Below are positions 31,138-47,742 of a DNA stretch of 64,000 bases, one piece after another. Both the position numbers and the translations under genes were made by a program. This DNA is from Escherichia phage APECc02: sequence record NC_041869.1, one strand, 5' to 3'. Under the pieces are notes generated by a model. The model saw nothing but the letters and a program-made list of their open reading frames with translations. It did not search any database and had not been told where the DNA came from. The number at the start of each line of letters is the position of its first letter. The stretch's first letter is position 1.

Positions 31138-31143
31138 AATAGT

Positions 31144-31171
31144 TTGACAACAATTACAAATCGGGTAGAAT
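31144..31171 (+). promoter_or_regulatory. sigma70-like promoter TTGACA-N16-TAGAAT
   Basis: 6 nt after upstream stop. Confidence 0.6.
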
Positions 31172-31223
31172 GTATTTCGTAGGGCGGGGCAATAAGGCAA
31201 CGCCCATTAATGAGGGTAGAATC

Positions 31224-31328: not shown

Positions 31329-31338
31329 GGTGAATCAA

Positions 31339-31554: not shown

Positions 31555-31645
31555 TTTAATTTATACCGATACCCGAAAATTAACCAACAAAGCATAAACA
31601 GGCGGTTACCGCCGCCTTAAACGTAGCAGAAAGAGGATAGACACA

Positions 31646-31930: not shown

Positions 31931-31932
31931 CC

Positions 31933-32067
31933 ATGAGAAAGATAATCATCACCTTGGGGATTGTGGCGGGATCGCTGGCGCTCTTTCCCCTTATGGTTAG
32001 GCATGTGCTGATCAGTATTGTCCTGATGGTCAGTGATCTATTGGAAACGGTTGGCACCTTGTTTTAA
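31933..32067 (+). CDS. small membrane peptide, 44 aa (below ORF-track cutoff)
   Basis: ATG 2 nt after upstream stop; MRKIIITLGIVAGSLALFPLMVRHVLISIVLMVSDLLETVGTLF. Confidence 0.3.
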   Translation: MRKIIITLGIVAGSLALFPLMVRHVLISIVLMVSDLLETVGTLF

Positions 32068-32079
32068 AGAGCGGTAAAA

Positions 32080-32271
32080 ATGAATATCGAACAAGTTAGA
32101 AAGGTATTAGCGGTACTGCGTTACCATAATCATAGAAAGGTCATAGACGATCCTGATTATGTTGATTCAAGCCTGGAAGGGGATACACTACAAGCCATAA
32201 GTAACATGCAAGAATTGCTAAAGCGCATGACAGAGAAAAACCGACCGGACTACATAGGCGAAAAAATATAA
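32080..32271 (+). CDS. hypothetical protein
   Basis: 63-aa ORF with AGAGCGG RBS. Confidence 0.45.
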   Translation: MNIEQVRKVLAVLRYHNHRKVIDDPDYVDSSLEGDTLQAISNMQELLKRMTEKNRPDYIGEKI

Positions 32272-32815: not shown

Positions 32816-33034
32816 ATGACAACCCGTAAAATTAAAGTTGTTTGCATTGAATCGACTGGGGGCGCTTTTGTAGTTGGTCAGGAATATAATGCGGTTTTAA
32901 TGGGTACGGATTGGAAGGTTAAAGGCCTTAATGGTTACGAGTACGGCACTACTTGCGGCTTGCGTGGTCGAATCGGATACGTGAGTTTAGACAATAAAGA
33001 AAAATTTGTTTTCGACACCGTTGTGAGTAAATAG
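32816..33034 (+). CDS. hypothetical protein
   Basis: 72-aa ORF; GGGCC/GGCCC hairpin and CACACAAAGAGAGAAAGAAA leader upstream. Confidence 0.5.
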   Translation: MTTRKIKVVCIESTGGAFVVGQEYNAVLMGTDWKVKGLNGYEYGTTCGLRGRIGYVSLDNKEKFVFDTVVSK

Positions 33035-33111: not shown

Positions 33112-33375
33112 ATGAAACGTCTGGATCAGCTTAAATTAGTTCAGTACATGGCCTACAGAATTCTTGAAGTCCAGAAAGGTAGCAAAAAAGAGGTTTGCGA
33201 GAAAGCTTATAAGATCTTCACTCGTAAAAAAGATGATTGGATGTTACGCCAGACCAAAAAGGCTGACATCTTGGGGTACCTGGAAGAAGAGATCCGCCTT
33301 GAAGAGCAAGAAGAGATCCGCCGTAGTGAGGCAGATTATCAGGCAGCTTGGGAAAACTGGATGAGCAACAAATAA
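33112..33375 (+). CDS. hypothetical protein
   Basis: 87-aa ORF with AAAGAGGAAA RBS; last plus-strand gene of the block. Confidence 0.5.
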   Translation: MKRLDQLKLVQYMAYRILEVQKGSKKEVCEKAYKIFTRKKDDWMLRQTKKADILGYLEEEIRLEEQEEIRRSEADYQAAWENWMSNK

Positions 33376-33394
33376 TACAACAAGGTGCACGGTC

Positions 33395-33420
33395 AGGGGC
33401 TTAAAGCCCCTTTCTTTTTG
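33395..33420 (+). terminator. rho-independent terminator
   Basis: hairpin AGGGGC-TTAAA-GCCCCT followed by TTCTTTTTG. Confidence 0.65.
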
Positions 33421-34028
33421 TCTCCTCTTTTCCTACCACAAATGGCCCCGCCTGGCAAATGGAATAATCAACAAGCCAGCAATTAACCCCACTGTACAAA
33501 CATACATATAAAATAACTATTGCATAATTTTTCATTGTGTGGTAGCAGGGCCATTTTTACACGTTTTTCCTTCCAAAATTGCACGTAATGCAGCATTTGC
33601 ACAAAATTTAACCTGATGCATATCTTCAATAGCTTGTCAACAACTAAAAATCTTTATAAGTCATACACTTACATAACTACAAAAGCGTTTTCTACGTGAA
33701 AAATCGAGTATAACTATAGCCGCCAGATCTCAGAATTTACGTACGCTCGCCATTCTATAGCCTGCTAAGCATTTATTCCAACCATAGAATAACGGAATAG
33801 TCAATACCTGCATAAAATAATTATTCGTGTAAACTGCATAACATAAATCGGCCCAGGTGTCAACATTTTTCGTAAACAGTCTGGAATTGTCACGTTAGGT
33901 TACCATAAGCAGAGAAATCTTTAGTCGTCTAATGTTTACTGTACGTTACTATACTAACTGAAATCATTAGATGACTAATAGAAAGATAAGAAATAATTAA
34001 CAATACAATTATTTTATCTGTAACAATA

Positions 34029-34205
34029 AGGCAACTATGCAAACGAATGGCATGGCGCGACGGAGTCGCGACATAATATAAAAGCAGTAACCATCACCCC
34101 CGTGATAGTTTGTCTGCAAACTATTAATCAGATCATAGTTGCCTTGTATTTAGTTAATCATGACATAACAAGCAAGGCAACTATAGATCTGCTAATAGTT
34201 GCCCT
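34029..34205. repeat. four copies of 11-mer AAGGCAACTAT in alternating orientation (candidate protein-binding sites)
   Basis: plus-orientation at 34029 and 34174, inverted at 34136 and 34195; 34135-34146/34173-34184 form a 12-bp perfect inverted repeat 26 bp apart. Confidence 0.6.
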
Positions 34206-34317
34206 GCTTTTATATTATGTCATAGAAACACCCGAAGGGGTGACCAAAGGTTACCTGGCATAGCCAGTGAAAGATTATTAACTTGCTAATCTTTATCATG
34301 CAAACGAATGGCATGGC
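34037..34317. repeat. 20-bp perfect direct repeat ATGCAAACGAATGGCATGGC
   Basis: copies at 34037-34056 and 34298-34317. Confidence 0.65.
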
Positions 34318-34338
34318 TTATCATTTCTGTGTAAATAG

Positions 34339-34390
34339 TCTATGCGTAAACTGTCAAGGCGTAAACAATCTATGCGTGAACAGTGAAACA
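34339..34390. repeat. short direct repeats TCTATGCGT(A/G)AAC and GCGTAAAC
   Basis: TCTATGCGTAAAC at 34339, GGCGTAAACA at 34359, TCTATGCGTGAAC at 34369. Confidence 0.5.
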
Positions 34391-34423
34391 TGAAATAATA
34401 ACAGTTGTTATTGTGTCATATTG

Positions 34424-34505
34424 TGCTGCAGCGTGTTGAGTATGTTTAAGGTGCCCAGTATGTCACCATTATGTCACTATTGTGTCATAGTGTCATAGTA
34501 TGTCA
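34424..34505. repeat. iteron-like array of TGTCA(C/T) pentamers at about 10-11 bp phasing
   Basis: TGTCA at 34424, 34461, 34472, 34483, 34491, 34501 (plus 34362, 34525). Confidence 0.6.
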
Positions 34506-35083
34506 GACAAGTTTTTCCCCTCTTTGTCAAGTGCTGCATGAAAAAATTTACAAGCTGGTATGGTAGCATTTTTGCGGCCTTGTTTACATTCAGTAATGTA
34601 TGTATAACCCTTGATGTGTGGGCGTTTAGACGTCTAGACGGTCAGAAGTCTGCAGGTCAATATCTAATCTATTGGCTGCTAACTATATCCCCCACAAATA
34701 ATAAGAAATATAATTGTTATGTGCGTAAACAGTAACTCATGTTATCAATCCCTGTATGGATCGCCAGTGGTGCGCATAATGGGTATTATGTTAAATTGCC
34801 CGTAATGATAACTATTCTCACAATGATAGGTATTCTCATTCACCCCCACAAGATAGGTTGCAAATGTTGTGCCACTGTGTGAACGGCCTAGCCTATTAAT
34901 TTGCCTCACTGCCTTGATATTTGAGAATTGTTATAAGAATGAGAAGTATTCCCATTTCGTCCGCCTGGCAGCACTCCTGTAGGTCCTGCAAGGACTCTAG
35001 CTGAAAGCTAGACCCTTCGGGCCTCCCTGTAGGTCAGGTCAAAATCGTGGTAGAATTGGGCCTGTTCAGATATTTCTGGCTGA

Positions 35084-35643
35084 CTCTTCAGGTCTGTGTG
35101 GGAAAAGCCAACCTCTCCGGCGGGGCAGGGGGTCATGACGGGAAAATTGCAGGTCAATTAAAAAATTTACGTGGTGTATGAAGCGCTCTTCAGGTAAGGC
35201 ATGTATTATGGGATGAAACCCTCTTCAGGCAATGATATTTGTGGGTGTGATATTTGCTGGAAAGCCAGATATGACGGGACTCCCGGCGGGGCAGGGGTAG
35301 TACAGACAGGGAAAATATGAGAATGTAGTTGGGGAAATTGATCAGACAGGTAGAGTATGGAATATGTTACAAGTATGTTAAATATGGAGGTTGAATATCT
35401 GTAGGATTTGTGTGTAAAATCAAAGACTTAAGGGGTGTTGTGGTATTTTCTATAAATAATTCAAGTTTAATAGGCAATATTTGTCTCTATCCGCTTTGTG
35501 TGGTAAACAGATTCAGATTAGATTGGTTTACAAGTGTATACATAATATACAAATTAAAGATACAAGAAACCCCCCTCCCCCCTTCGGCTACCATTCACCT
35601 TTTCCTCTGACTGGTACTTAAACACTTATTCAGACTCTTCAGG
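35084..35643. repeat. dispersed direct repeats CTCTTCAGG (x4), CCGGCGGGGCAGGGG (x2), CCTGTAGGTC (x2)
   Basis: CTCTTCAGG at 35084, 35186, 35221, 35635; CCGGCGGGGCAGGGG at 35117 and 35283, each followed by G-rich GGGAAAAT. Confidence 0.55.
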
Positions 35644-35993
35644 TTATCACCCATATATCATATGGCAGTGACTGGTGTCCTCCGGCCCCTCTTTCGTCAC
35701 CCGTCCGCTTCGCCATGCTAATGCCATAGCTAATGGTTCGGTTGTTCACCCTGTTCACTCAGGTGTATCTCTATACCCCTTCAAACCGAAGAGAACAGAA
35801 AACCCGAATTACTCGGTAAAAGAAAAGAGAAGAACTTAATTTTATCAGGATAGGCAAGAATGTCAAGGCATGACTGCTCACTAAACAAGCAAACAGTCAT
35901 GTGTGGGAGGTAAGTGATTGTGGTGGTAGGAAATTTAGTTGAAAGATGTGTTATAGGTGCTTCCAGCACTTTAGCCGGGCAGCTAATTGTGTG

Positions 35994-36209
35994 TCAGTCC
36001 AGCGGTTCATCCTCTACTTCACTGAAATCAATGTTCATGGTCTCTTCCCAACCATCGATCTCAGCACAAGAGTGGAGTTCTTTAGGGTTTACTCCCAAAG
36101 CCTCAGCAACAGAGTCTATATTTAACACCTCTGGCAGGTATGATTCATCGAATTCAAGGTAAATCAGGCCACGAGTGTTGTCAGCTCCACCAAATATCTC
36201 TATCTTCAT
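35994..36209 (-). CDS. hypothetical small acidic protein
   Basis: 71-aa ORF, last gene of minus-strand block. Confidence 0.5.
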   Translation of the reverse strand: MKIEIFGGADNTRGLIYLEFDESYLPEVLNIDSVAEALGVNPKELHSCAEIDGWEETMNIDFSEVEDEPLD

Positions 36210-36330
36210 AAAATCTCCTCTGGGAATGAAAGTGTGAACAGGGTTTTATACGTTCTAATGCACAGGAATTATACACGTTTGCCTCTTCAGGCCATGCTTC
36301 AGCATGAGGAACCTGTGTGGGCTCGGTGCT

Positions 36331-36744
36331 TCATAGTCTACCACCCCTGAACTCTTCGTGCTCAGGCATAATAGAGAACCAGATATCTACGATGTCTTCC
36401 CACGTCAGGTCATCAGCCTCAGGATCTACCTGGAGCGAAGATGAAGAATCTTCAGAATCGAAGTTTTCCTCTTGCACTGGCTCAGTCAAGGGACATATAG
36501 TCACTCCTTTGGATGTCTCTTCAGATGCATGTGTGTTTATCATGTTCCACCCGTGAGTATTCCGGCAACAGCCACTATGGACGTAATGATCATCAGGATC
36601 ACCACCAAAACCTCTGACAATGTTTTCATTGTGTATCCCATATTCTCCAAACGATGTGTGGATACTATCACTGGATCGGTAATGTGTCAACAGAAACGCC
36701 GCGAGGGTTTGGTTAAAATCCGAGCGTATGGTGATTTGGGTCAA
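36331..36744 (-). CDS. hypothetical acidic protein
   Basis: 137-aa ORF co-directional with neighbours; overlaps plus-strand shadow ORFs. Confidence 0.4.
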   Translation of the reverse strand: MTQITIRSDFNQTLAAFLLTHYRSSDSIHTSFGEYGIHNENIVRGFGGDPDDHYVHSGCCRNTHGWNMINTHASEETSKGVTICPLTEPVQEENFDSEDSSSSLQVDPEADDLTWEDIVDIWFSIMPEHEEFRGGRL

Positions 36745-36903
36745 AACGGACGTGCGTTCTCGCTACGCTCGAAATATGGAGTTGTTTGTAGGGAGCTCTT
36801 AAACGCTCTGTAATGAAATTAACTACCCAAGGTATGCAATCGTGCACCAGACAAAGAAAAGGACGCCACAGAGCGTCCTAGGTGTCTTAAATTTGATATT
36901 TTG

Positions 36904-37203
36904 CTATACCCACGAGGGCTTATCAAGGTTGGAGTAGCTGAAAGGTGTCAAAAGGTGACTGTCAAAATCTCTCAAACTATCCAAATCTTTTTCCTCGTCC
37001 TGACACCATCTGTGCCTACATTTGTTGTTGTAGTGCATGGAATGCATAGCGTTCTGCAACTTAACAGGCACAAGTGATTCAGGAGTAGATAGTATTGTTG
37101 GGTATGCCAGAACCACCTCAAACAGTGGAAACACATCGAAACTAAAGTCTACCTCTGCAGAGGTTGATGGCATATAGGAGTATTTAGCCGCCTTTGTAGA
37201 CAT
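36904..37203 (-). CDS. hypothetical protein
   Basis: ATG with GAGGTGG RBS; track ORF 36904..37215 trimmed. Confidence 0.45.
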   Translation of the reverse strand: MSTKAAKYSYMPSTSAEVDFSFDVFPLFEVVLAYPTILSTPESLVPVKLQNAMHSMHYNNKCRHRWCQDEEKDLDSLRDFDSHLLTPFSYSNLDKPSWV

Positions 37204-37211
37204 AATCCACC

Positions 37212-37544
37212 TCACACAGGTTTGATAATACCTTCACCGAATAGCTCTTCGTATCTAATCTTGTCCGGATCCCACTCCTGTATAATTTCGAAGACAATAT
37301 CCAACCCAGGAACAATCACTTCTCCAGTGTCAAGCTTAGCAAGAACAAAACCGGAAGGTTGAATGGTTTCCCAGTTACGGCGATCAGAATAAAATACTTC
37401 GAAAATATCACCAACCTCAATCCGTTTCTGTTGCTCAAGATGCTGAAGGTTCTCTTTCATACGGATGCAGCGTATTTTTCGTGCAGGCCATAGACCACCT
37501 GCATCACGTTCATTCAATTCTTTTACAGTGATCGGTATACCCAT
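37212..37544 (-). CDS. hypothetical protein
   Basis: 110-aa ORF with GAAGGAGA RBS. Confidence 0.5.
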   Translation of the reverse strand: MGIPITVKELNERDAGGLWPARKIRCIRMKENLQHLEQQKRIEVGDIFEVFYSDRRNWETIQPSGFVLAKLDTGEVIVPGLDIVFEIIQEWDPDKIRYEELFGEGIIKPV

Positions 37545-37561
37545 CTCAAGTCTCCTTCATG

Positions 37562-37595
37562 GATAGTAAAAAGAGGGGCCTAAGCCCCCCCTCTT
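37562..37595 (-). terminator. putative rho-independent terminator (minus strand)
   Basis: 8-bp stem AAGAGGGG/CCCCTCTT followed on the minus strand by TTTACTAT. Confidence 0.45.
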
Positions 37596-37600
37596 TGTCA

Positions 37601-37906
37601 TTATTCTACAGAGCGTTTGAACAGAATGTCTGCCTCAGACATGTGCTCAACCTCTTCTTCGATTTTAGCTCGACGTTTTTCAGCCTCATATCGAATATCG
37701 AACTCGGTAGCCACCAGAGATTTGATGAATTTAGGAGAATACAGATGATCCTGCTTCTCAACAAGAATGATATCCTTGATGGCATCTTTCAAATCTTTAA
37801 TCTGAAGCTGGAGTTCCACCAGTTCTTCAATTGTTTTGCGAAGGCGATCACGTTCTGCAGTGTCAGAAGGAAGAGAGGTGAACAGTTCAACTTTAGATTT
37901 AGCCAT
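37601..37906 (-). CDS. hypothetical coiled-coil protein
   Basis: 101 aa, heptad-like charged sequence. Confidence 0.5.
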   Translation of the reverse strand: MAKSKVELFTSLPSDTAERDRLRKTIEELVELQLQIKDLKDAIKDIILVEKQDHLYSPKFIKSLVATEFDIRYEAEKRRAKIEEEVEHMSEADILFKRSVE

Positions 37907-37934
37907 AGTAAGAGTCTCCTTATGTTGTTTTAAA

Positions 37935-38186
37935 TTAACGTTCTACAAAAATACCGTTCAGTTCAATAACCAGGAATTTCTGGTCTTCACTATCGTCTCG
38001 TGCCAGCACCTCACAGACGTATCGGTCATCCCCATCATCATCGCAGTCAAATACAAGACTGAGGACTTTATCATGATAAACCTTCGCCACTACCGCCTCG
38101 TAAGTATTGCCGATTGTGAATCCAAGATAATCTCCAATGCATTTGACAACAACATGATCACCAGCATTCAAGTCAATCTTCGTCAT
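37935..38186 (-). CDS. hypothetical acidic protein
   Basis: ATG after AAGGAG; track ORF 37935..38252 trimmed. Confidence 0.5.
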   Translation of the reverse strand: MTKIDLNAGDHVVVKCIGDYLGFTIGNTYEAVVAKVYHDKVLSLVFDCDDDGDDRYVCEVLARDDSEDQKFLVIELNGIFVER

Positions 38187-38341
38187 TACTGCGCTCCTTG
38201 GGTAATAATACTGTATGTAAAACTTTAACCAGAGATGTGAATAACGCCCCAAAACACACCGATAGCGCTAAAACAGACAAGGCCATCATTAAAGCTTCAG
38301 TAAAATCAGTCACTCCTCACCTCTTGTTAGTCACTATACTG

Positions 38342-38605
38342 TCATTTATCCTTGCCGTCAAGAACTTTTTTAAATCTTTCAGGGATATCGCCTGTTCTTA
38401 GATAGCTCATGACCTCACAAGGTTCCCACTTGAATTTCTTACAAAGCAGGGCGGCTGAGATTGTTTCATTGCGAAAAGAAAGGATATTAATATCCCATTC
38501 TGAGAATCCCAACTTCCGAAGGGTAGCTACAGAAATCCTCACCGCAACCCAGCAGCAAAAACATGCAACAAACGCCACTGCTATAACCCACATCAGGATG
38601 TTCAT
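38342..38605 (-). CDS. hypothetical membrane protein
   Basis: N-terminal TM helix MNILMWVIAVAFVACFCCWVAV. Confidence 0.5.
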   Translation of the reverse strand: MNILMWVIAVAFVACFCCWVAVRISVATLRKLGFSEWDINILSFRNETISAALLCKKFKWEPCEVMSYLRTGDIPERFKKVLDGKDK

Positions 38606-38694
38606 ACAAGCACCTCACTGAAATACAAGACACAGTGTTAAGGTTACAGACCAGCAAATAATTAACAGTGCCGTTGCAACCTTGGCAAGATTTA

Positions 38695-38982
38695 TCATAG
38701 TGCCTCTAAGATTTCATATCCTTCGGGTCGGAATACAAGCCACTCCGTGGCTCCGTTTGGTCGATACGCTTTATACAGAACAACCTGATCTCGGCACATG
38801 CACATAGCTACATAGTTTTCATCCACACCTGCAGCCTGCATTGCAGCTTCTTCTCCGGCAACTGCTTTGCTTACAACCTCCTTAGTAGGCAAGTGTGCGA
38901 TCAGCTCGTCACCATCCTTAATTCCAAAATGGCTGAGTTCTCCATTGGTATCTTTAATCTTAATCTTAACCAAATCTTTCAT
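38695..38982 (-). CDS. hypothetical protein
   Basis: 95-aa ORF. Confidence 0.5.
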   Translation of the reverse strand: MKDLVKIKIKDTNGELSHFGIKDGDELIAHLPTKEVVSKAVAGEEAAMQAAGVDENYVAMCMCRDQVVLYKAYRPNGATEWLVFRPEGYEILEAL

Positions 38983-39311
38983 TAGTCTTCCTCCAGGTTC
39001 AAAGGTCCTAAGATTTCATATGCCAGATTAGAAGTTACCAGAGGGTCTTCTGCATCTTTAGTATTATACCACCCGTGAATAACCAGAGTCCCACTTTGTT
39101 TCATGTCCAACTGTAACTCTTCTGCCGTTTCCTCATCCAGCTCCAAGATTTCCATAAGGTATTTGATGTTAGGAAGGTATGCAGCTGTTACAGTTCCCTC
39201 CACCAAACCTTCGGGCCAACCTACATCTGGATGACAAGTAGGAACCAGGTTGGTCAGCTTAATGGTGTACGCTTTTTCTGCACGAGCCTTCAGTAACGGG
39301 TCAATCTTCAT
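38982..39311 (-). CDS. hypothetical acidic protein
   Basis: 109-aa ORF, overlapping stop/start. Confidence 0.5.
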   Translation of the reverse strand: MKIDPLLKARAEKAYTIKLTNLVPTCHPDVGWPEGLVEGTVTAAYLPNIKYLMEILELDEETAEELQLDMKQSGTLVIHGWYNTKDAEDPLVTSNLAYEILGPLNLEED

Positions 39312-39661
39312 TATTCGTCCTCCTCTTCGGTGCCTGCTTCCAGTAATAAGTTAAGAATATCTTCTGCACAAGGCTCATAGAACTCTTGGCCTTCATTATC
39401 GATGATTTTGTAGTCATCTCCGCGAATAATCAGAGGATCACTCTCAAAATTATCGAGACCTTTAACAACGACAACACGATCGATTGCCATCATTGTAAGA
39501 ACTTTATCGACATCTTCCTCTGCTACACCATACTGCAGCAGAATGTCTTTGGTAGGAGGAACAGCATCCACCACAACACCGTTACCAAAACCTTCCGGTA
39601 AGTTAGCTAAAATATCTTCCGGAACCACACTAACATCAAAACCAGTAATTTCTACTTTCAT
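39311..39661 (-). CDS. hypothetical acidic protein
   Basis: 116 aa, C-terminal EAGTEEEDE. Confidence 0.5.
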   Translation of the reverse strand: MKVEITGFDVSVVPEDILANLPEGFGNGVVVDAVPPTKDILLQYGVAEEDVDKVLTMMAIDRVVVVKGLDNFESDPLIIRGDDYKIIDNEGQEFYEPCAEDILNLLLEAGTEEEDE

Positions 39662-39922
39662 TTACAGCACCTCTTCGTCAACTACTTCATAAAAATGGCC
39701 TGGGATTGCAATAGCGTTCTCACCTTCACCTACAAACACAGTTCCGTCAAGAATCAACATCATAAGAGTTTCTGGAATATCCTCTTCCTGAACGTTGCCA
39801 AAACCTTTAATCAGCTCGTAGGTTGGAAGATTTACCTCTAAGATGTCACCATCTTTAGAGCGGAAATCAACACCATCCTGAATCTCTGCCATTTCAAGGT
39901 TTTTCAGTTTAATCTTCATCAA
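39662..39922 (-). CDS. hypothetical acidic protein
   Basis: 86 aa, MMKIKL N-terminus, acidic C-terminus. Confidence 0.5.
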   Translation of the reverse strand: MMKIKLKNLEMAEIQDGVDFRSKDGDILEVNLPTYELIKGFGNVQEEDIPETLMMLILDGTVFVGEGENAIAIPGHFYEVVDEEVL

Positions 39923-39998
39923 TCAGTCTCCCGTCTTGTTAAGATGAAGGTATTATTTCACACAGGGTTGGTGTTGTCAACACCTGTGTGCAAGAAAA

Positions 39999-40394
39999 TT
40001 ACTGAAACAGTGCGGATAAATTACCTTCTGGTGGGAACTTATCTGCCAAAAACGGTGTTAGCACAGTAGCCTTCTGAAGATCTGGGGTCCACTCGTTGTT
40101 CAGAACATCCCAGTAGTACGCAATGTTGCTGTGTGGGTGCCGCATTACGAACTTTTTCCCTTCGTAGTCATCTGAAACCTCTACAGAAGAAATAACAACA
40201 GAATCTTCAAGGGTTTCTTCATAGAAAGATCCGCCTTCAAATTTCCAACGAGATGCAAGAGCCCCTGCCTTGAACGCTGCAGATAACGGACTGTCGGCAA
40301 GAACATACATTTCTTGCACTCTGTCGCTGCGATCTTTGCTTCTTACGTTGTATACAGTATCTGAGCTATACTCAACACGGTATAGGCTTACCAT
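39999..40394 (-). CDS. hypothetical protein (paralog of 42202..42612)
   Basis: shares V..HP.S....YW......WTP motif with 42202..42612. Confidence 0.55.
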   Translation of the reverse strand: MVSLYRVEYSSDTVYNVRSKDRSDRVQEMYVLADSPLSAAFKAGALASRWKFEGGSFYEETLEDSVVISSVEVSDDYEGKKFVMRHPHSNIAYYWDVLNNEWTPDLQKATVLTPFLADKFPPEGNLSALFQ

Positions 40395-40726
40395 TACCGC
40401 ACCTCCTCAATAACTTCCACATCTGAACCCACCACAAATGCAAAAGGACAGGTTTCATGAAAGACATCCGGATCGCCGCCAAGCTTGCTAACAATTTCTC
40501 CACCACTAATAAACACAAGCTCACCGATATTCATCAGATTGCTGAAATAGTATCCATAATGATTAAAGAATGCAGCAGGGTCAGGTAGACTAGTGGCCTC
40601 AAGCACTACATCGGTTGAGGTTACTTTCTTATCATAGCCTCTCGCCTTCTGAGATGCAAGATCTGCAGAATCCTCAGGCGACCGGAGATGCACAGGAATT
40701 GTTTCACCAATAAAGCGTACTTTCAT
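40394..40726 (-). CDS. hypothetical acidic protein, MKVK-family paralog
   Basis: likely ATG start giving MKVRFIGE (track start 40753 is TTG); VGSDVEVIEE tail. Confidence 0.5.
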   Translation of the reverse strand: MKVRFIGETIPVHLRSPEDSADLASQKARGYDKKVTSTDVVLEATSLPDPAAFFNHYGYYFSNLMNIGELVFISGGEIVSKLGGDPDVFHETCPFAFVVGSDVEVIEEVR

Positions 40727-40730
40727 ATTA

Positions 40731-40994
40731 TCACCCAACAACCATAGCTTCAAAAGGGGTCATGAACGAATAAACGGCATCATCATCTGCTTCAGGGAAT
40801 GCTCCCAAAGACTTCATGTCTGAGCCCTTGACAAATACAAGGTTTTGATCAAAGGCTTCTTGGGGGTCAATCCGATACATATCTCGTAGGATATCACTTA
40901 CCTCCTCATCAAGAGGTGAGTATGCTGTGCACGTTTTTCCGATCAAGCTTTGAGAATCAGGGTATCCACCTGAAGTTTTAAAATAAACAATCAT
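40731..40994 (-). CDS. hypothetical acidic protein, MKVK-family-related
   Basis: VFVKGSDMKSLGA resembles the G.DL(I/L)AAGA core of the family. Confidence 0.5.
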   Translation of the reverse strand: MIVYFKTSGGYPDSQSLIGKTCTAYSPLDEEVSDILRDMYRIDPQEAFDQNLVFVKGSDMKSLGAFPEADDDAVYSFMTPFEAMVVG

Positions 40995-41085
40995 ATAGTA
41001 TCACCTCTGGTAAGAGATTGGGATTCCTTTCCCACAAATAATTACAAACCTTCCTTGTCGAGGAAGTATGCTAATCCAAGCAGGA

Positions 41086-41355
41086 TTATTCCTCTACAAT
41101 CTCATACACATCCGGAGTTACAATCAACTCTTCTCCGTTACCCGGTGCAACAAACACCACCATTCCTTCAGGTGTGTGCTTTTTAGCCATCTCGATAACA
41201 TCTTCTCGCAGAGCTGGCTCCATCAGATCAAAACCTTCACCAAGGGCATCACGAACCACCTTCATATAGTCAACTGGTTGTGCTTCGACAATCATGCCTT
41301 CAACCAGTCCACAATTTTTGTCTGCCAGCTCAGTTTGGAATAATTTAATTTTCAT
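41086..41355 (-). CDS. hypothetical acidic protein
   Basis: MKIKLF start, YEIVEE end. Confidence 0.5.
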   Translation of the reverse strand: MKIKLFQTELADKNCGLVEGMIVEAQPVDYMKVVRDALGEGFDLMEPALREDVIEMAKKHTPEGMVVFVAPGNGEELIVTPDVYEIVEE

Positions 41356-41505
41356 TTAGAGGTCTCCTCAATTATTTGATATTAATAGCCGTAACCTAAC
41401 ACATTAACTACAACTGCGATTGCAAACATAATTTCAAAGCATGCAATCTCTACATTTGGGACTAATTTCTTAATCACACCCATTGTAGCACCTCATTCTC
41501 CAAAG

Positions 41506-41811
41506 TCAATCTTTACTTTGCCTCTCCCCCTTACCTTTCTTTCTACCGCACTTAGCCAGTTGACGTGCTGCAACATCTACCATACGGTCAGTTGCCTCGT
41601 AAGCATCACTGCCTTTAGCTTTGGCAATAACTTCTTTTCCAGAATTGTCAAAAATGAACGCCATAACTTCCTGGTGATCATTTTCAACTTTTACACTCAC
41701 ACGTGCATAGTTGGCAGAGGGGTGCAAACGCTCCAGCTTAGACATTTTGTTGGAAATGAAAGACACCATACCTTCAGTGATTTCTACGTTGCCAGTGATT
41801 TCAATTTGCAT
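41506..41811 (-). CDS. ribosome hibernation promoting factor / RaiA (YfiA) family protein
   Basis: MQIEITGNVEITEGMVSFISNKMSKLERL ... VSVKVEN ... NSGKEVIAKAKGSDAYEATDRMVDVAARQLAK aligns along its length with bacterial HPF (MQLNITG.NVEITEAL...KL...VKVEK...G.E..A.A.G.DMY.A.D...DKLARQL.K). Confidence 0.7.
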   Translation of the reverse strand: MQIEITGNVEITEGMVSFISNKMSKLERLHPSANYARVSVKVENDHQEVMAFIFDNSGKEVIAKAKGSDAYEATDRMVDVAARQLAKCGRKKGKGERQSKD

Positions 41812-41893
41812 AACGTGTTCCTTTTAAAGAAGAGGGGACCAAACCCTCTTTGAAAACAATGATACTAAATCTGAAGCGTTGTGTCAACAGTTT

Positions 41894-42184
41894 TTACAGA
41901 TTGTTGTCGATAGTTTTTAAAATATCCACAGCAAGATCTGCCATTTTTCGAACATACTCTGCAAACTCAACAGGATCCTTGATCAAAGAATTCACAGGGT
42001 CGTACCCTAGAGCGTTCAAAATGGTTGCAGCATCTACAACCTTCTCATCATTTGCGAAGATCTCTCCGTCAAACTTGTAGGTCCATTTTGAGTCAACCTT
42101 AGCAGAGCAGGGTTTGTCCATGCTTGTTACACCATCGTCTTTAAACTCTCCTGCGTTATCAATATTCAGAACTAAATCCATCAT
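41894..42184 (-). CDS. hypothetical acidic protein
   Basis: 96-aa ORF. Confidence 0.5.
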   Translation of the reverse strand: MMDLVLNIDNAGEFKDDGVTSMDKPCSAKVDSKWTYKFDGEIFANDEKVVDAATILNALGYDPVNSLIKDPVEFAEYVRKMADLAVDILKTIDNNL

Positions 42185-42201
42185 AGTGGCACCTCACTGT
42201 T

Positions 42202-42612
42202 TCAGTTTAGCTTTTCTTCAACAACCCCATAACTTGGGGCAGAGTCAAGAGCTTTCTGGTTTAAAAGTGGTGTAGCAGAATCTGCAAACGGTGTCCAAGT
42301 TTTTGTTCTGGCATTCCAGTAATGCTTCACTCTAGAATCTGGGTGCACTATAACAAAAACTTTTTCACTTGTCAACACATTAATTTCTTCCACACCTTTG
42401 CTGATAATTTCTCCGTCATATCCCCCGGTCTGGTATCCTTCGTACCAGGTTCTTGCATAGGCATAGCCAGCCTGCCAGCATGCAGCCTCCTCCGAGGTGG
42501 AGACTACGTAGAAGTCTTTCTCAAATTCTGGGATACGCCCTTGCTTTACGCTCCAAGCTCCGCGAATTTTCATTGTAACTTTGAACAGTTTATTTTTCAC
42601 AACGGTTACCAA
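42202..42612 (-). CDS. hypothetical protein (paralog of 39999..40394)
   Basis: VIVHPDSRVKHYWNARTKTWTP motif shared with 39999..40394. Confidence 0.55.
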   Translation of the reverse strand: MVTVVKNKLFKVTMKIRGAWSVKQGRIPEFEKDFYVVSTSEEAACWQAGYAYARTWYEGYQTGGYDGEIISKGVEEINVLTSEKVFVIVHPDSRVKHYWNARTKTWTPFADSATPLLNQKALDSAPSYGVVEEKLN

Positions 42613-42867
42613 TCACAGCTCTACAATATCTGCATCTGACCCTGCCCCAAAGGCATAATAGGACTCTTCCCCGAAATAATATTCCGGTGCACCAGCAGCG
42701 ATCAGGTCTGATCCCAAGATAAACACCACGTTGTGGCCTACATAACTGTGATGTTGCCGCACAGGATCATCCCACGGCAACCCTTCAAAGTATACCGCAG
42801 GAACGACCTTTCCCTTCAGGAAGGATTGTCCCAAGTAGACGTTAGAATCAAGAATTTTAACCTTCAT
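42613..42867 (-). CDS. hypothetical acidic protein, MKVK-family paralog
   Basis: MKVKILD ... GSDLIAAGA ... DADIVEL. Confidence 0.55.
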   Translation of the reverse strand: MKVKILDSNVYLGQSFLKGKVVPAVYFEGLPWDDPVRQHHSYVGHNVVFILGSDLIAAGAPEYYFGEESYYAFGAGSDADIVEL

Positions 42868-43084
42868 GATCGTCCTCCACTATCTCTACATCCTCACCAA
42901 GGGCAAAGTTGTAGGTCCACTGACTGTCAAAGCAGTCCTGAGATGCACCAGCGGCAATAAGATCTGCACCTTTTATTTTTAAAAGGTCAGGATAATCTTC
43001 GTTAGGGATAGCGGTAAACACTTTCCCCACTAAGGGCTCCTGACCAATATAGAAGCTTGAATCTAAAACTTTAACTTTCATCAA
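42857..43084 (-). CDS. hypothetical acidic protein, MKVK-family paralog
   Basis: MMKVKVLD ... GADLIAAGA ... EDVEIVEDD. Confidence 0.55.
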   Translation of the reverse strand: MMKVKVLDSSFYIGQEPLVGKVFTAIPNEDYPDLLKIKGADLIAAGASQDCFDSQWTYNFALGEDVEIVEDDHEG

Positions 43085-43368
43085 CGGTCTCCCTCAGGCG
43101 GTTGTGGGACGTAAACACTGTTACGAATATCGTCAGCAGTGTAGTAATAAGTGGTTCCAACCCTGTCTCGGGCTGCAATGTACTCTGCTATACCAATAAG
43201 TGCCATTGATTTGGTGGCGTATCTTCCCAACTCGTTAGCTCCCCAGTAGAATTTAGACCAGTAGGGAATAAGACCGAACAAATATACCTTTTGACGAACT
43301 TCCCAGTAAGTGCCTTTTCCGACAAGTTTAAACTCTACTTCACTACTGTTAATCTTTTTCATTATCAA
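43081..43368 (-). CDS. hypothetical protein
   Basis: 95-aa ORF. Confidence 0.5.
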   Translation of the reverse strand: MIMKKINSSEVEFKLVGKGTYWEVRQKVYLFGLIPYWSKFYWGANELGRYATKSMALIGIAEYIAARDRVGTTYYYTADDIRNSVYVPQPPEGDR

Positions 43369-43661
43369 TCTCCCTCTACCGTGGTCGGATTGTCAGTAAG
43401 AAATTGAGCATTGGCTGGAGGCACGCCTGACATTTTCCACACAACCATAAGTTTGTAACCAGGCACTCTATTAAGTGCAGATCGAGTAGAGTTTGTGCAC
43501 GTATACTTTCGCTTTCCAAACCCGTTCTCCATCATAATCCAGTACCCAGTATCTTTGTCACCAGGTATCGGTAGACCACCTTCATCAACCCACTGAATGG
43601 ACCACGGCACGATGGCTACAGCTTTATATTTAAACTTTTTAAACCACTCAAAAAGTTTCAT
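43365..43661 (-). CDS. hypothetical protein
   Basis: 98-aa ORF. Confidence 0.5.
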   Translation of the reverse strand: MKLFEWFKKFKYKAVAIVPWSIQWVDEGGLPIPGDKDTGYWIMMENGFGKRKYTCTNSTRSALNRVPGYKLMVVWKMSGVPPANAQFLTDNPTTVEGD

Positions 43662-43756
43662 AATTCAGCCTCGCATAGACATAATCACTATAAACAGGCA
43701 AACAATGAATCCGAATGCCACGCCACCCATAAACGTTAATATTGATGCAATCATAG

Positions 43757-43942
43757 TCAATCAGCCTCGCTTGGCAACTCTTCTACCTTAACATGCCGAA
43801 AAGTGTTACCGTAATGGTTGATCCATGACATCAGCTCGCTTTCTTGCTCTTCCTCTGGGATGAACTCTCGAATGCTGACAAGTTTTAAGAAAACCCAATC
43901 ACAATCTGCACCCATTCTACCAGACAGGCAATAGTGCTTCAT
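43757..43942 (-). CDS. hypothetical protein
   Basis: 61-aa ORF. Confidence 0.4.
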   Translation of the reverse strand: MKHYCLSGRMGADCDWVFLKLVSIREFIPEEEQESELMSWINHYGNTFRHVKVEELPSEAD

Positions 43943-43960
43943 AAAACCCTCCCGCCTGGT

Positions 43961-44155
43961 TTAGAATATTGCTTCTTCCATTGCGCCTGAGAGCAACAAA
44001 GAGGTGATCTGGCTAACATTCATCTCAGACTCTACTTCCTCCCCTTTGAAAGGTTCGCGGCAGAATAGGACTGTTTCAGGACTTTTACTTCGAACAATAT
44101 AATACAAATCATTCAATGTGTTGTAGTAATAAGTGTTAAAACGTAAGTTTTTCAT
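43961..44155 (-). CDS. hypothetical protein
   Basis: 64-aa ORF. Confidence 0.45.
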   Translation of the reverse strand: MKNLRFNTYYYNTLNDLYYIVRSKSPETVLFCREPFKGEEVESEMNVSQITSLLLSGAMEEAIF

Positions 44156-44439
44156 TTTCTAGTCCTCTTCTTAGATTTTTGGGGAGAAACGCTTTCTGCA
44201 ATACGAGACAGACGTTCTTCTGAAGCCTTACCTACTCCAGGTTTTTTGAGTGGATTATCTTTATGACCACAATCCAACTGGATATTGGATACCTCTCCAA
44301 CTTTGTAAGTCAATTCTAGCAAAAGGTTGTCGTCCTTGTCAAATGTTTTTACGATAAATTTTTTATCGTTCTCCTGAACTTCATATCTGGTACCTGCAGT
44401 ATACAGCATGGTGCCATCAGCATAGGATATCCAGATCAT
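44152..44439 (-). CDS. hypothetical protein
   Basis: 95-aa ORF with basic C-terminus. Confidence 0.5.
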   Translation of the reverse strand: MIWISYADGTMLYTAGTRYEVQENDKKFIVKTFDKDDNLLLELTYKVGEVSNIQLDCGHKDNPLKKPGVGKASEERLSRIAESVSPQKSKKRTRK

Positions 44440-44783
44440 TGAGCCTCCTTTTGCTGCAACAGCATTAACTCTTTGTTAGAGATCTTTACTGCTGTTTTTA
44501 TTGTTCCATCTTCACGAAACCACGACCAGAACTCTACAGTGTCACCACTATCAAGTAAAGCATGCCCATGGTAAAAATCTTTGTCCTTAGACAGTTTCTC
44601 ATCTATATCTGCATCAACACATTCGTGATCCATAGCATTTTGCCTGAACGCATCGGTTATGCCAATGCACGCCTTGCTCTCAAGACTGGTATATCCGATA
44701 TCTTTTAATTCAGTTTCCCAAGTCCAGTACCCTATAAAAGCTAAAACAGCTACCCACAGTAATAACGTTTTAATCTTTGGCAT
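44436..44783 (-). CDS. hypothetical protein with N-terminal signal/anchor
   Basis: N-terminal hydrophobic segment LLLWVAVLAFIGYWTW. Confidence 0.5.
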   Translation of the reverse strand: MPKIKTLLLWVAVLAFIGYWTWETELKDIGYTSLESKACIGITDAFRQNAMDHECVDADIDEKLSKDKDFYHGHALLDSGDTVEFWSWFREDGTIKTAVKISNKELMLLQQKEAQ

Positions 44784-44845
44784 TCTCTCTACCTCTTTCT
44801 TAGTTTATTTCACTATGGCACATCCTTTGTGCCATATCTCAACTA

Positions 44846-45316
44846 CTACTTAAATAGTAGTTCAAAATAGTGCAAAATTAACAGAAGTTGAACTACACCT
44901 AGTGCAACGGCAAGTATGTTAATCTTAGAATCGAAAAACTTCTTAACTTTTACTCTAAAAGGTTCCTTAATGTCCTTTACGATCCTATCTATAGATGACC
45001 TCATATCTCTGATTACCATCCTGAACATTAAAGACGGATGCTCCCCCATCTCTGTAACGGAATCGAAAACATACTCTCTTCGGTCATAAGGGCCGCCAGC
45101 TCTGCGTATTAACCTCTCCACAGAGACCTCGAACGTCACACCTGTAACGTAATCATCTATAACAAGTCGTGACGGGTCTTTACCTTTACTATCAAGAGGT
45201 ATCAAAGTTATCTTTCCAGATTTTGTTAAAATTTCCCCTTTTTCAAGCAAGGTGTACCAATGCTCTCTGCCAAGACTGTTGAGGCACGTTTTTACATATT
45301 TAACAAACATCGTCAC
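44846..45316 (-). CDS. hypothetical protein with C-terminal TM helix
   Basis: 156 aa; C-terminal ILAVALGVVQLLLILHYF. Confidence 0.5.
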   Translation of the reverse strand: MTMFVKYVKTCLNSLGREHWYTLLEKGEILTKSGKITLIPLDSKGKDPSRLVIDDYVTGVTFEVSVERLIRRAGGPYDRREYVFDSVTEMGEHPSLMFRMVIRDMRSSIDRIVKDIKEPFRVKVKKFFDSKINILAVALGVVQLLLILHYFELLFK

Positions 45317-45718
45317 CCCTCATCGCACGTCTGATATAACCACTCTATAAAATCTTGATACCATTCGCCCTCTGAGCGCTCCGTAGGCCAATAATCTTCA
45401 CCCTCTCGTGCATTAAAATCTGAGTATTCAACTTTCCACTCCTTTACCAGCTCGTGGAGAAGGTTTTCAGCCTGCTCTAAAGATTTATTTTTTTACCATT
45501 GCTGTCTCCTTTTTCAAGATAGTTATACATCAGAACTGCACCACCTAAGATGGCTACCAGTAACAATACCCCAGATAGCATCTCAATAAACATGGCTTGA
45601 AACACTGGAAGGCCTCCCTAAATTAACGCACCATTTTAAATACATGCTCTTTTCCCATAAAGGTGCCTGGCTAAGATCTGCGTAGAACGCAATCTCTTTA
45701 AGAACAGTATAAACAGTT

Positions 45719-45955
45719 TTAGGTGCGGTCTCCATCCCTACCCTCCTTTTTCTCCTTACGGATATTCTTGTAGTAATCAACCAAGCACATTATCACGATG
45801 AAGATAACAACAGGCCAAAAAGGTGCAGCAGTGATGATGGTGATAAAATCATCAAACTTCACCCTTCGTCTGGACACGATGCATACACCTGTCAAGAATA
45901 CCGCTGTTATAACGGACATTACCAGGTAACCTATTAGCACAACATTTATACTCAT
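45719..45955 (-). CDS. hypothetical membrane protein
   Basis: 78 aa, two hydrophobic helices. Confidence 0.45.
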   Translation of the reverse strand: MSINVVLIGYLVMSVITAVFLTGVCIVSRRRVKFDDFITIITAAPFWPVVIFIVIMCLVDYYKNIRKEKKEGRDGDRT

Positions 45956-45985
45956 TGGTCCTCCCTTTGTAGGTTAAATTGTATA

Positions 45986-46519
45986 CTACAAATGGTCGCT
46001 GAGGGTGTCAAGAAAATTATCCCGTTCTTTCTCAGAGTTTTCATGTGTGTAGCTGAAAAACATATCGAGAATAACCTTATTGATATATTCCAGCTCCTCT
46101 GTGTTCAGATGCTTAGCAGGATCTACAATGACATCCCAAATATCATACAGACCGCACTCATGATACCCATAACGCCACTCAATTGTCAAGCTGAGCGGCA
46201 AATCTTTACCTTCACAAACAACCTTCCATCTACATATGTTGGTATCTGGTCGTACCTGTGCACGGTACACCTGCACAAAATCCAATTTGAATTTGAGGTA
46301 CTCGTCATACAATTTAAGCACAAAGCTCTCGATTTGTGGAGACACTTTTGCAGCAAACTGTGCGTATTTGTACTTGCACTGGATGATCTTTCTGCGTTTT
46401 GCAGTTAAATTTTTTGCCGCCAGTTGTTCTTCAGTGTATCTCCACCTACGATCAACAAACGCAACAGGGTCTTTGTCCCCATAGAGGTCTTCCCAGTTAA
46501 TCAGAAGCATACCTGTCAC
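45986..46519 (-). CDS. hypothetical protein
   Basis: 177-aa ORF. Confidence 0.55.
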   Translation of the reverse strand: MTGMLLINWEDLYGDKDPVAFVDRRWRYTEEQLAAKNLTAKRRKIIQCKYKYAQFAAKVSPQIESFVLKLYDEYLKFKLDFVQVYRAQVRPDTNICRWKVVCEGKDLPLSLTIEWRYGYHECGLYDIWDVIVDPAKHLNTEELEYINKVILDMFFSYTHENSEKERDNFLDTLSDHL

Positions 46520-46749
46520 TCCTCCACAACTTCAAGGCCTTTACCGCCTCGCTCTGGCAGATTACTTAAAGATAGGTAATACATATAATCAGGAGAGATC
46601 CTGCCAGACTCTGCACCTGCAGCTAGTAAATCCTTCCCTTTAACCAGGACAACATTCTCGTTTGCAGATAGCCGTTTTGCTTCCACAATTTTACCAACAC
46701 AGTCAACCAAGGAAGGGTACCCTAAATCTGTAAGAAATTTAACTTTCAT
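46516..46749 (-). CDS. hypothetical acidic protein, MKVK-family paralog
   Basis: MKVKFLTD ... GKDLLAAGA ... GLEVVEE. Confidence 0.55.
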   Translation of the reverse strand: MKVKFLTDLGYPSLVDCVGKIVEAKRLSANENVVLVKGKDLLAAGAESGRISPDYMYYLSLSNLPERGGKGLEVVEE

Positions 46750-46786
46750 GCTACCTCCTACCTACCATCCCTGGTAAGATAAATTA

Positions 46787-47185
46787 TTACTGAACAGAGC
46801 GCGGTGCTGGGAAGGATAACTCTTCTAAAGAGAAGATTTCATTTCCTACCACCCAAGTTGCTGGGTCATCTGGATCAACAGGTTGGATAATCATTACCTC
46901 ATCCGCCTCGCACACACGTTTCCCACCCATAGTAGCGTCAGCCACTAACATACGCGGCTCTTCAGAAATGCACAGGTAGCCACCTCGGCCCACTGTTCCT
47001 TCCACGGGATCCTGCCCTTTGACCACAATGAATACCTTCTCTCCTGTGGCGATATTACTTTTCACACTAACAGTTTGACCAACTTTAGATGTACCGATCT
47101 TGGTGGCTTCAAACATTAAATCCCGAATTACTGTTGCATAGTTGCCGGACACTTTCTTACCTTCTTTAGTAATCTCAATCTTCAT
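46787..47185 (-). CDS. hypothetical protein
   Basis: 132-aa ORF, MKIEIT start. Confidence 0.5.
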   Translation of the reverse strand: MKIEITKEGKKVSGNYATVIRDLMFEATKIGTSKVGQTVSVKSNIATGEKVFIVVKGQDPVEGTVGRGGYLCISEEPRMLVADATMGGKRVCEADEVMIIQPVDPDDPATWVVGNEIFSLEELSFPAPRSVQ

Positions 47186-47457
47186 AATCTAGGCTCCTTA
47201 AATGAATCTATGTAATCAATTAAATCCCAAGCATCGCGATGGGCTGTCAGAGGGTATACTTCTCCGAGAGGGATCATAGCAATAAGTCTATCAAAAACCC
47301 AGTCTGGACGCAACATTTTATGGTGATATTCCCACTCACCTTCCACAGATTTTTTCTGAGTTATCAGGATCTCTGTGTAGTGTTTCTCCTGTCTTGAGTA
47401 GATTGAAAATGACTTGTACATAAATGACCCCCTCTTGTTGAAAACAACAATACACAA
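47182..47457 (-). CDS. hypothetical protein
   Basis: 91-aa ORF. Confidence 0.5.
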   Translation of the reverse strand: MCIVVFNKRGSFMYKSFSIYSRQEKHYTEILITQKKSVEGEWEYHHKMLRPDWVFDRLIAMIPLGEVYPLTAHRDAWDLIDYIDSFKEPRL

Positions 47458-47742
47458 CTACCAGGTTACTGTCAAGTAGGCAACCGTATTATTTTTCTCT
47501 GGGGAGATGCCAACAACATCTACCTGCAGACCTCCTGCCCTTAAATCTCCAACAATGTGAGGGAAGTAATCTGAGAGATGCGAGGGTAGATTTATCGAAA
47601 ATCCGCACCCCAGAAAGCCTGCTAACGCTTTATTTTGTATCTCCCCCACAATCGCATCATAAATGGAGTTAAGCTCGTCAGGGAGCGTTACAGGACGTTT
47701 TAGCGCTAACTGGTGTAATTTGTCCTTAGCACTCATTTTCAT
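47458..47742 (-). CDS. hypothetical protein
   Basis: ATGA overlap with MTase stop; track ORF 47458..47772 trimmed. Confidence 0.45.
   Translation of the reverse strand: MKMSAKDKLHQLALKRPVTLPDELNSIYDAIVGEIQNKALAGFLGCGFSINLPSHLSDYFPHIVGDLRAGGLQVDVVGISPEKNNTVAYLTVTW

Follow-up and report, generated by a model that had tools for sequence, protein, structure and literature searches.

The 64,000-nucleotide stretch of Escherichia phage APECc02 analyzed here (the window; NC_041869.1) carries, at positions 35,994 to 47,457, an 11.5-kb block of small minus-strand genes that includes three families of paralogs, termed A, B, and C. With moderate confidence, we read the block as a dispensable accessory end whose three paralog families would bind host proteins, neutralizing strain-specific defense or other host barriers. 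Regions of this type are well known, and one gene of this one (the ortholog of g36904; genes are named throughout by their lower coordinate, and all coordinates are those of the whole window) is already characterized. What is new is the three-family structure, a duplicated gene cassette, an SH3-like fold, and the link of families A and B to a host-specific phenotype that had gone unremarked. The paralogy, the family A fold (as a model), the purifying selection, and the gene layout were established in this analysis; dispensability on E. coli K-12, one anti-defense gene, and the host-specific depletion of one cassette (cassette 2 below) and a second family B gene were established by others on near-identical orthologs.

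The phage is a Vequintavirus, an rV5-like E. coli myophage. In a nucleotide database comparison the block shows 98.8% identity to Escherichia phages A51.2 and slur12, and at least 80% of it is carried by 114 of the 121 matching phage records, nearly all of them Vequintavirus (rV5-like myophages of ~137 kb). Eighteen records titled “Campylobacter phage” (MG0656xx, host C. jejuni) are ~97% identical to the block; these are probably mislabeled or contaminant assemblies. The 38 gene calls (29–174 amino acids, aa) use start codons consistent with ribosome-binding sites and with annotation in relatives, and they agree with the GenBank annotation of phages at 97–99% identity.

35994–47457, minus: the whole accessory block, 38 small genes (gene calls and relatives’ annotation); dispensable on K-12 in phage Bas54

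A long series of leftward genes ends with this block, which in transcription order follows the ribonucleotide reductase (nrd) genes, PhoH, a ClpP-like protease, and a Dam methylase, all part of the same series. Every gene from 35994 onward is on the minus strand, plus-strand genes stop at 33372, and the GC (guanine-cytosine) skew switches sign at ~35–36 kb. Public records call nearly all block genes hypothetical; names are given only to a ribosome hibernation factor, a “putative glycosidase”, a “transcriptional regulator”, and a “virion structural protein”. A Pfam scan of the 30 longer block proteins found only the ribosome hibernation promoting factor (HPF) above the cut-off and zero matches for families A, B, and C; all matched PHROGs are of unknown function except 639 (regulator) and 7821 (“virion structural protein”, g44846); and an Rfam scan of 33–48 kb gave zero matches. 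In transcription order the block runs from g46516 (A) to, further on, g42857 (A), g42613 (A), g42202 (B), g41894, HPF, g41382, g41086 (C), g40731 (A), g40394 (A), g39999 (B), g39662 (C), g39311 (C), g38982 (C), and g38695 (C), and 12 of the 15 genes in 38695–43081 fall in the three families:

46516–46749, minus: family A, 77 aa, solo copy (phmmer, profile); 48% identical to a prophage homolog (P0031)
42857–43081, minus: family A, 74 aa, gene 1 of cassette 1 (phmmer); protein modeled by AlphaFold2
42613–42867, minus: family A, 84 aa, gene 2 of cassette 1 (phmmer); 11-nucleotide (nt) overlap with g42857
40731–40994, minus: family A, 87 aa, the most divergent copy, gene 1 of cassette 2 (profile, hhalign, BFVD); ortholog bas54_0152
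40394–40726, minus: family A, 110 aa, strands 2 and 3 separated by a 31-residue insertion, gene 2 of cassette 2; ortholog bas54_0151
42202–42573, minus: family B, 123 aa as annotated, gene 3 of cassette 1 (phmmer); ortholog bas54_0157
39999–40394, minus: family B, 131 aa, gene 3 of cassette 2 (phmmer); start overlaps the g40394 stop (TAATG); ortholog bas54_0150
41086–41355, minus: family C, 89 aa, just upstream of cassette 2 (leave-one-out profile); ortholog bas54_0153
38695–39919, minus: four tandem family C genes (39662–39919, 39311–39661, 38982–39311, and 38695–38982)

In a phmmer all-versus-all comparison, g42857 matched g42613 (E 7e-13), g46516 (4e-6), and g40394 (6e-5), and g40394 matched g42613 (2e-4); the control, 20 shuffled databases, yielded one match in total. 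The divergent g40731 was recovered at E 1e-6 by a profile built from the other four family A genes and joins the family by hhalign at 98% probability. Smith-Waterman z scores reach at least 3.8 for 9 of the 10 family A pairs, and in the 561-pair z matrix the family A and B pairs rank top, with z up to 21. A 61-member profile finds all five genes (E 1e-17 to 1e-32) and nothing else in the array or in the six-frame translated window, and hhalign of the array assigns 97.5–99.6% probability to the five members and <3% to all others. The first-pass annotation, a reading of the letters and open reading frames (ORFs), had proposed paralog families in the array, and both hold far above shuffled controls: A has exactly five members and B has two. 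The motifs by which it had defined the former, MKVK(F/I/V)L, G.DL(I/L)AAGA, and EIVE(E), are exact in three members but only approximate in g40394 and g40731. A broader grouping, one superfamily of all acidic “MK(I/V)K...” proteins, was not borne out: the 61-member profile and hhalign retrieved only the five array members, and families A and C share only a 23-column N-terminal match (E 0.013, probability 3%).

Existing classifications capture family A in part. PHROG 5009 is matched by g42857 (E 2.5e-38), g46516 (8e-36), and g42613 (4.7e-32), weakly by g40731 (1e-4), and not by g40394; g40394 and g40731 are filed under PHROGs 13661 and 13920, so the family is split over three PHROGs and is not recognized there as one family of five. 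PHROG 5009 and mEp021_40 are uncharacterized phage proteins, and the mEp021 paper has nothing on gene 40; the mEp021-group homologs are 41–49% identical to g46516, the copy nearest to the prophage homologs. A word-indexed search of 5.8 billion proteins gave 38 family A clusters, nearly all from Vequintavirus-sized contigs, and also a 75-aa E. coli protein (309 member sequences), which in mEp021-type prophages is encoded between the genes for antiterminator Q and the holin. When 1.84 billion representatives were searched exhaustively with HMMER, the count rose to 44 clusters, 41 of them proteins of 38–136 aa and three of them longer proteins that match only locally; the family consensus is MKVKLL..GGY..G...GKVV.A ... 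I.G.ELI.AGA ... Y.F..G.E.EVIEE. Occurrence outside the genus is sparse: three examples lie among small genes, in replication or early modules, next to primase/helicase or other phage-type accessory genes on phage-like contigs. Families B and C were absent beside the family A homologs in the other phage contigs examined; like the g36904 family, they were seen only in Vequintavirus records or Vequintavirus-sized contigs. One wastewater phage contig encodes a 136-aa tandem fusion of two family A domains (L018 731–1141, protein P0053), a hint that dimers or pairs may be the working form of family A proteins, as might also hold for the adjacent A-A genes here.

What does family A look like? The AlphaFold2 model of g42857, built from a 35-sequence alignment, is confident (predicted local distance difference test, pLDDT, 90.3; predicted template modeling score, pTM, 0.78) and shows five strands and a short helix bearing the G-x-D-L-I-x-A-G-A motif. 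As modeled, the fold is a small, SH3-like, five-stranded β-barrel that superposes on SH3, KOW, or PsaE domains. Sequence identity to these barrels is only 4–24%, no Pfam SH3, KOW, or Tudor domain matches, and family A differs from them by the motif-bearing helix and a variable loop insertion; the predicted likeness is one of fold only and says little about the ligand. A BFVD fold search with the model found as its top match the Shigella phage CM1 ortholog of g40731 (template modeling score, TM, 0.81); the other neighbors are nearly all unnamed or uncharacterized small phage proteins. Length differences among the paralogs (0 to 31 residues) sit in the loop between strands 2 and 3, which in the model is plausibly the part that sets target specificity.

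The two members of family B, g39999 and g42202, match at E 6e-11 by phmmer (28% identity, Smith-Waterman z 13), and the motif V..HP.S....YW......WTP, by which the first-pass annotation had paired them, is found in both proteins. The annotated ATG start of g42202 (42573) lacks a ribosome-binding site, and the true start may be GTG 42600 or TTG 42612, directly after the g42613 stop; the longer protein would carry an additional strand at its N-terminus (KLFKVTM), which can be aligned with LYRVEY in the paralog g39999, and the dominant public cluster of g42202 is a 132-aa form (P0040, 239 members).

Family C was missed in the first pass and exposed by the z-score matrix. It has five members, g41086, g39662, g39311, g38982, and g38695: in leave-one-out profiles, g41086, g39662, g39311, and g38695 each come out as the top non-member match at E ~1e-5, and the profile of these four picks up g38982 at E 3.5e-5. 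Several GenBank records label g41086 “sigma 54 modulation factor”. This name is wrong, as there is no Pfam S30AE match, and was probably carried over from the neighboring HPF gene.

Families A and B are combined in an A-A-B gene cassette that is present twice, as g42857-g42613-g42202 (cassette 1) and g40731-g40394-g39999 (cassette 2). A permutation of gene order gives two such cassettes with P = 7e-5, for a pattern that was noticed post hoc. The cassette genes are tightly coupled, through the g42857/g42613 overlap in one and the g40394/g39999 stop/start junction in the other.

Selection on the block was assessed as the ratio of non-synonymous to synonymous change (pN/pS) against five relatives. 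Values are 0.04–0.19 for family A, 0.02–0.03 for family B, 0.06–0.37 for family C, and 0.03 for g36904; most of the block is below 0.2. Raised values occur in g41894 (0.67), g39662 (0.37), and g36331 (0.36), and positive selection was rejected, no gene exceeding 1. Synonymous changes dominate: the block genes are real and constrained. The block maximum, g41894 (41894–42184, minus; 96 aa; isoelectric point, pI, 4.2), has 38 non-synonymous and 15 synonymous differences and is the only candidate in the block for relaxed or diversifying selection. The families had been called diversifying, a description that does not fit orthologs under purifying selection; the paralogs are old (22–49% identity), and indels are the only exception to the stability of the block within the genus, the clearest being 43365–45310, which is missing in phage Bas54.

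Functional evidence comes from HIDEN-SEQ, with a saturated transposon library of the sister phage Bas54 (phage MaxBurger, MZ501093; bioRxiv 10.1101/2025.11.20.689424). Block and Bas54 share one-to-one orthologs at 86–100% identity (94–100% for family genes), with the family A and B genes corresponding to bas54_0150–0152, 0157–0159, and 0166. On K-12, all 34 genes from bas54_0135 to bas54_0168 are Non-essential, Intermediate, or NA in Data S2 and none is essential, and most block genes reach full insertion saturation (bioRxiv 10.1101/2025.11.20.689424). A knockout described in the same preprint shows that bas54_0140 is needed against DS-28, a predicted defense system of the uropathogenic strain CFE311 (bioRxiv 10.1101/2025.11.20.689424); its counterpart here is an orphan gene:

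36904–37203, minus: orphan gene, 99 aa; 99% identical to bas54_0140, the validated anti-DS-28 factor

The resampling table for K-12 versus CFE311 (supplement of bioRxiv 10.1101/2025.11.20.689424) gives the following depletion figures, as log2 fold change on CFE311:

bas54_0152, ortholog of g40731 (A): −7.16, adjusted p = 0
bas54_0151, ortholog of g40394 (A): −6.17, adjusted p = 0
bas54_0150, ortholog of g39999 (B): −6.77, adjusted p = 0
bas54_0157, ortholog of g42202 (B): −2.14, adjusted p = 0
bas54_0153, ortholog of g41086 (C): −2.78, not significant

One whole A-A-B cassette and a second family B copy matter on the same host, CFE311, as measured by transposon depletion, in which polarity is possible. 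In supplementary file 9, a sheet titled resampling_K-12_vs_CFE303 has the CFE311 sample in its command line, and the next sheet is numerically identical. The passages of the HIDEN-SEQ text that were searched name only 0140 (and 0063) and never mention “paralog”, and the depletion of 0150–0152 and 0157 appears only in the supplementary table; the locus is the same one in a sister phage, and its families, fold, and cassette are not reported there. “Paralog” is likewise absent from the rV5 genome paper. An accessory-gene screen preprint has rV5-like phages outside its coverage, and the OI-172 defense paper and the daunorubicin paper contain nothing gene-specific for the block.

The first-pass annotation had named two findings that would refute it, paralog similarity no higher than in shuffled sequences and a conserved virion role, and neither holds. 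The similarity far exceeds that of shuffles, and the genes do not encode virion parts: the proteins named from mass spectrometry of rV5 virions (rV5 genome paper) are tail, baseplate, capsid, and portal proteins and gp133, none of which maps to the block, and the genes tolerate insertions.

In the mechanism that we propose, old gene duplication would have produced three families of small soluble proteins (five copies of A, two of B, and five of C) that act as stoichiometric binders of host proteins, different paralogs being aimed at different targets and neutralizing strain-specific defense or other host barriers. For family A, the binding module would be the conserved SH3-like barrel, with the strand 2–3 loop plausibly setting specificity. 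We infer protein binding, early expression, and, for families A and B, an anti-defense role over another host-specific one. The first-pass annotation had suggested an expanded anti-defense or host-takeover repertoire: an accessory block concerned with host interaction is borne out by its dispensability on K-12, the anti-DS-28 gene, and the depletion on CFE311, but the DNA mimicry (at least for family A) and diversification that accompanied the suggestion are not.

Several observations weigh against this mechanism: (i) in the passages of the preprint that were searched a defense pairing (DS-28) is reported only for bas54_0140 and bas54_0063 and none for families A, B, or C (bioRxiv 10.1101/2025.11.20.689424); because no defense system is paired with A or B, the cause may be a host difference other than defense; (ii) on CFE311 there is no phenotype for three copies of family A (0158, 0159, and 0166) or for four of family C; (iii) depletion of 0152, 0151, and 0150 could be polar on the last gene, as the upstream 0153 dips (−2.8, not significant) and the next gene downstream is unaffected; (iv) direct knockout proof within the block is limited to the g36904 ortholog, the evidence for A, B, and C being transposon insertions; (v) the clinical-strain data come from one strain, CFE311; (vi) conservation of 90–99% across the genus and strong purifying selection are unlike fast-turnover anti-defense islands; (vii) a search of the literature found no Vequintavirus transcriptome, and the timing of expression is read from the sequence; and (viii) the family B model has a pLDDT of only 50, from an alignment of effectively two sequences, and was left out of the fold search.

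The alternative that fares best, possible though in our view unlikely, takes up the polar pattern: the paralogs would be relics of old duplications and family A depletion purely polar, with only g39999/g42202 or another gene mattering. The run of depletion from 0153 to 0150 fits polarity, and if polarity applies along it, what is left as a minimum is a requirement for family B; the three family A copies without phenotype point the same way. By contrast, all five family A copies keep a low pN/pS and the family persists in unrelated phage contigs, which argues that each copy is under selection for some function.

Somewhat less likely is a second alternative, in which the proteins are general modulators of host takeover or physiology (translation, transcription, or metabolism) and the need for them on CFE311 reflects strain physiology. 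An HPF homolog and a PHROG 639 regulator in the same block, the nucleotide-metabolism genes upstream, and the strong purifying selection with genus-wide conservation all fit housekeeping-like takeover roles, and SH3/KOW-like barrels often bind transcription or translation machinery, a functional link that here would follow from the modeled fold. Yet all these genes are dispensable on K-12, most with full insertion saturation; the only directly tested block gene is an anti-defense factor; and the depletion on CFE311 is host-specific and near total.

Can the anti-defense reading be made more specific? A-A-B may be a previously undescribed multi-component counter-defense module, in which two SH3-like adaptors and a family B protein act against a defense of uropathogenic E. 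coli, with both cassettes, the solo family A gene, and the family C run being paralog-diversified versions aimed at different defense alleles; this proposal is tentative, and we regard it as doubtful.

A role in inter-phage competition or lysogen benefit, such as superinfection exclusion, is suggested by the family A homologs between the Q and holin genes of mEp021-type prophages. The Q-to-holin interval is a classic accessory “moron” position in lambdoid phages. The phage analyzed here is strictly lytic, however, and the transposon-sequencing phenotype concerns productive infection of one host, for which the genes are needed, and not competitor exclusion, which together make this role very improbable.

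The acidity of the array deserves separate comment. The array of small minus-strand proteins announced in the first pass (about 30) is there, with 38 genes, but strong acidity sets it apart only in part: its median pI of 4.93 lies below the 6.10 of the other small ORFs of the window (Mann-Whitney p = 0.02), and the share of proteins with pI <4.5 is 26% in the array and 25% among the others. Aspartate plus glutamate (D+E) make up a median of 15% in the 61 members of family A, whose net charge ranges from −13 to +3 and whose conserved positions are mainly Gly and hydrophobic residues. A composition like that of DNA mimics is found outside family A, in g39311 (25% D+E, net −22), g35994 (27%, net −16), and g36331 (26%, net −15), for which mimicry is possible. 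The Pfam scan of the 30 longer proteins contained no Ocr/ArdA profile match, and sequence searches of the PDB, for which families A and B, g36904, and g39311 served as queries, yielded no meaningful match and no Ocr/ArdA. Ocr (T7 gp0.3) and ArdA resemble the proteins here in being small, acidic, phage- or plasmid-encoded, and, as predicted for the block, made early; they are helical, DNA-shaped dimers, whereas family A is modeled as a β-barrel of lower, non-conserved acidity and without a sequence match. Structure prediction gave a barrel for family A and no Ocr/ArdA-type helical rod, but an unreliable model for family B. Ocr and ArdA are anti-restriction proteins, whereas the Vequintavirinae are reported to be exceptionally susceptible to restriction-modification systems (BASEL; PMC8594841). 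That the families are Ocr/ArdA-like DNA mimics blocking restriction enzymes or other DNA-binding host factors, as 20 of 38 array proteins with pI <5 and the three hyper-acidic proteins might suggest, is the least probable reading of all, given the predicted barrel, composition, and charge of family A, the empty Pfam and PDB searches, a strongly acidic share no greater than that of other small ORFs, and the sensitivity of the group to restriction; for family A, the model indicates that the label is wrong.

Small early or accessory anti-defense gene clusters are familiar from lytic phages, in the T4 and T7 early regions and in anti-CRISPR loci. As a general-knowledge comparison, those clusters share with the block a one-directional series of small, mostly orphan, non-essential genes with host-type promoters and at least one anti-defense factor. 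Compared with such clusters, the block is unusually paralog-rich, with 12 genes in three families, and is conserved genus-wide under purifying selection, without quick turnover.

A motif scan of 32.5–48.5 kb for sigma-70-like sites scoring at least 10/12 returned 13, all on the minus (coding) strand, of which 6 sit 20–48 nt upstream of start codons; two terminator-like hairpins were also found:

41859–41887, minus: sigma-70-like promoter (TTGACA-17-TATCAT), 48 nt upstream of the HPF start (motif scan)
39952–39980, 47447–47475, 45983–46011, 38333–38361, and 36662–36690, minus: similar sigma-70-like sites (motif scan)
36860–36879, minus: intrinsic-terminator-like hairpin, 8-bp stem and T-run, directly downstream of g36904
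37574–37591, minus: second terminator-like hairpin, after g37601

The rV5 paper reports host-type promoters across the genome. The position of the block and its many sigma-70-like promoters suggest, from sequence, that it is transcribed early by host RNA polymerase.

Three further features complete the block:

41506–41811, minus: ribosome hibernation promoting factor homolog, between the cassettes (Pfam Ribosomal_S30AE, PF02482)
37601–37906, minus: 101-aa PHROG 639 protein (transcriptional regulator); 57 synonymous and 0 non-synonymous changes among relatives
43365–45310, minus: seven-gene segment, absent from phage Bas54 (presence/absence comparison)

The HPF match (E 8e-13) scores 49.3 bits, where the cut-off is 23.7, and spans 86 of the 88 profile positions, and the ortholog of g41506 is non-essential in Bas54 and unaffected on CFE311. 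The seven-gene segment contains g44846, the gene labeled PHROG 7821 “virion structural protein”; as the segment is absent from Bas54, g44846 cannot be an essential virion part.

Outside the block, the converging gene blocks are separated by a 2.6-kb non-coding gap (33376–35993), which contains three 15-nt-spaced iteron-like repeats (GCGTAAAC..GT) at 34331–34387, a further, fourth repeat at 34710, and several inverted repeats, one of them with perfect 18-nt arms at 34070/34204. The equivalent Bas54 gap is reported to have zero transposon insertions (bioRxiv 10.1101/2025.11.20.689424), and the gap may hold a replication origin or another cis element that is essential. On its far side, the last plus-strand small genes (32816–33031 and 33112–33372) are orthologs of bas54_0132 and bas54_0133, with log2 fold changes on CFE311 of −4.3 and −5.2; bas54_0123–0129 (~30958–32268, plus) show about −2 to −2.9, 3 of the 7 genes significantly. 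Because these genes too are depleted on CFE311, a second host-specific accessory block, on the plus strand, faces the minus-strand block.

Phages of the rV5 type are common and infect a broad range of hosts; cocktails for biocontrol and therapy make use of them, yet most of their genes are of unknown function. The present analysis gives structure to 11.5 kb of such a genome, resolving 12 genes into three families, one of which has a confident fold, and two of which coincide with genes necessary on a clinical strain in an independent transposon screen. These families could reveal new inhibitors of E. coli defenses and explain the strain-specific failure of rV5-like phages.

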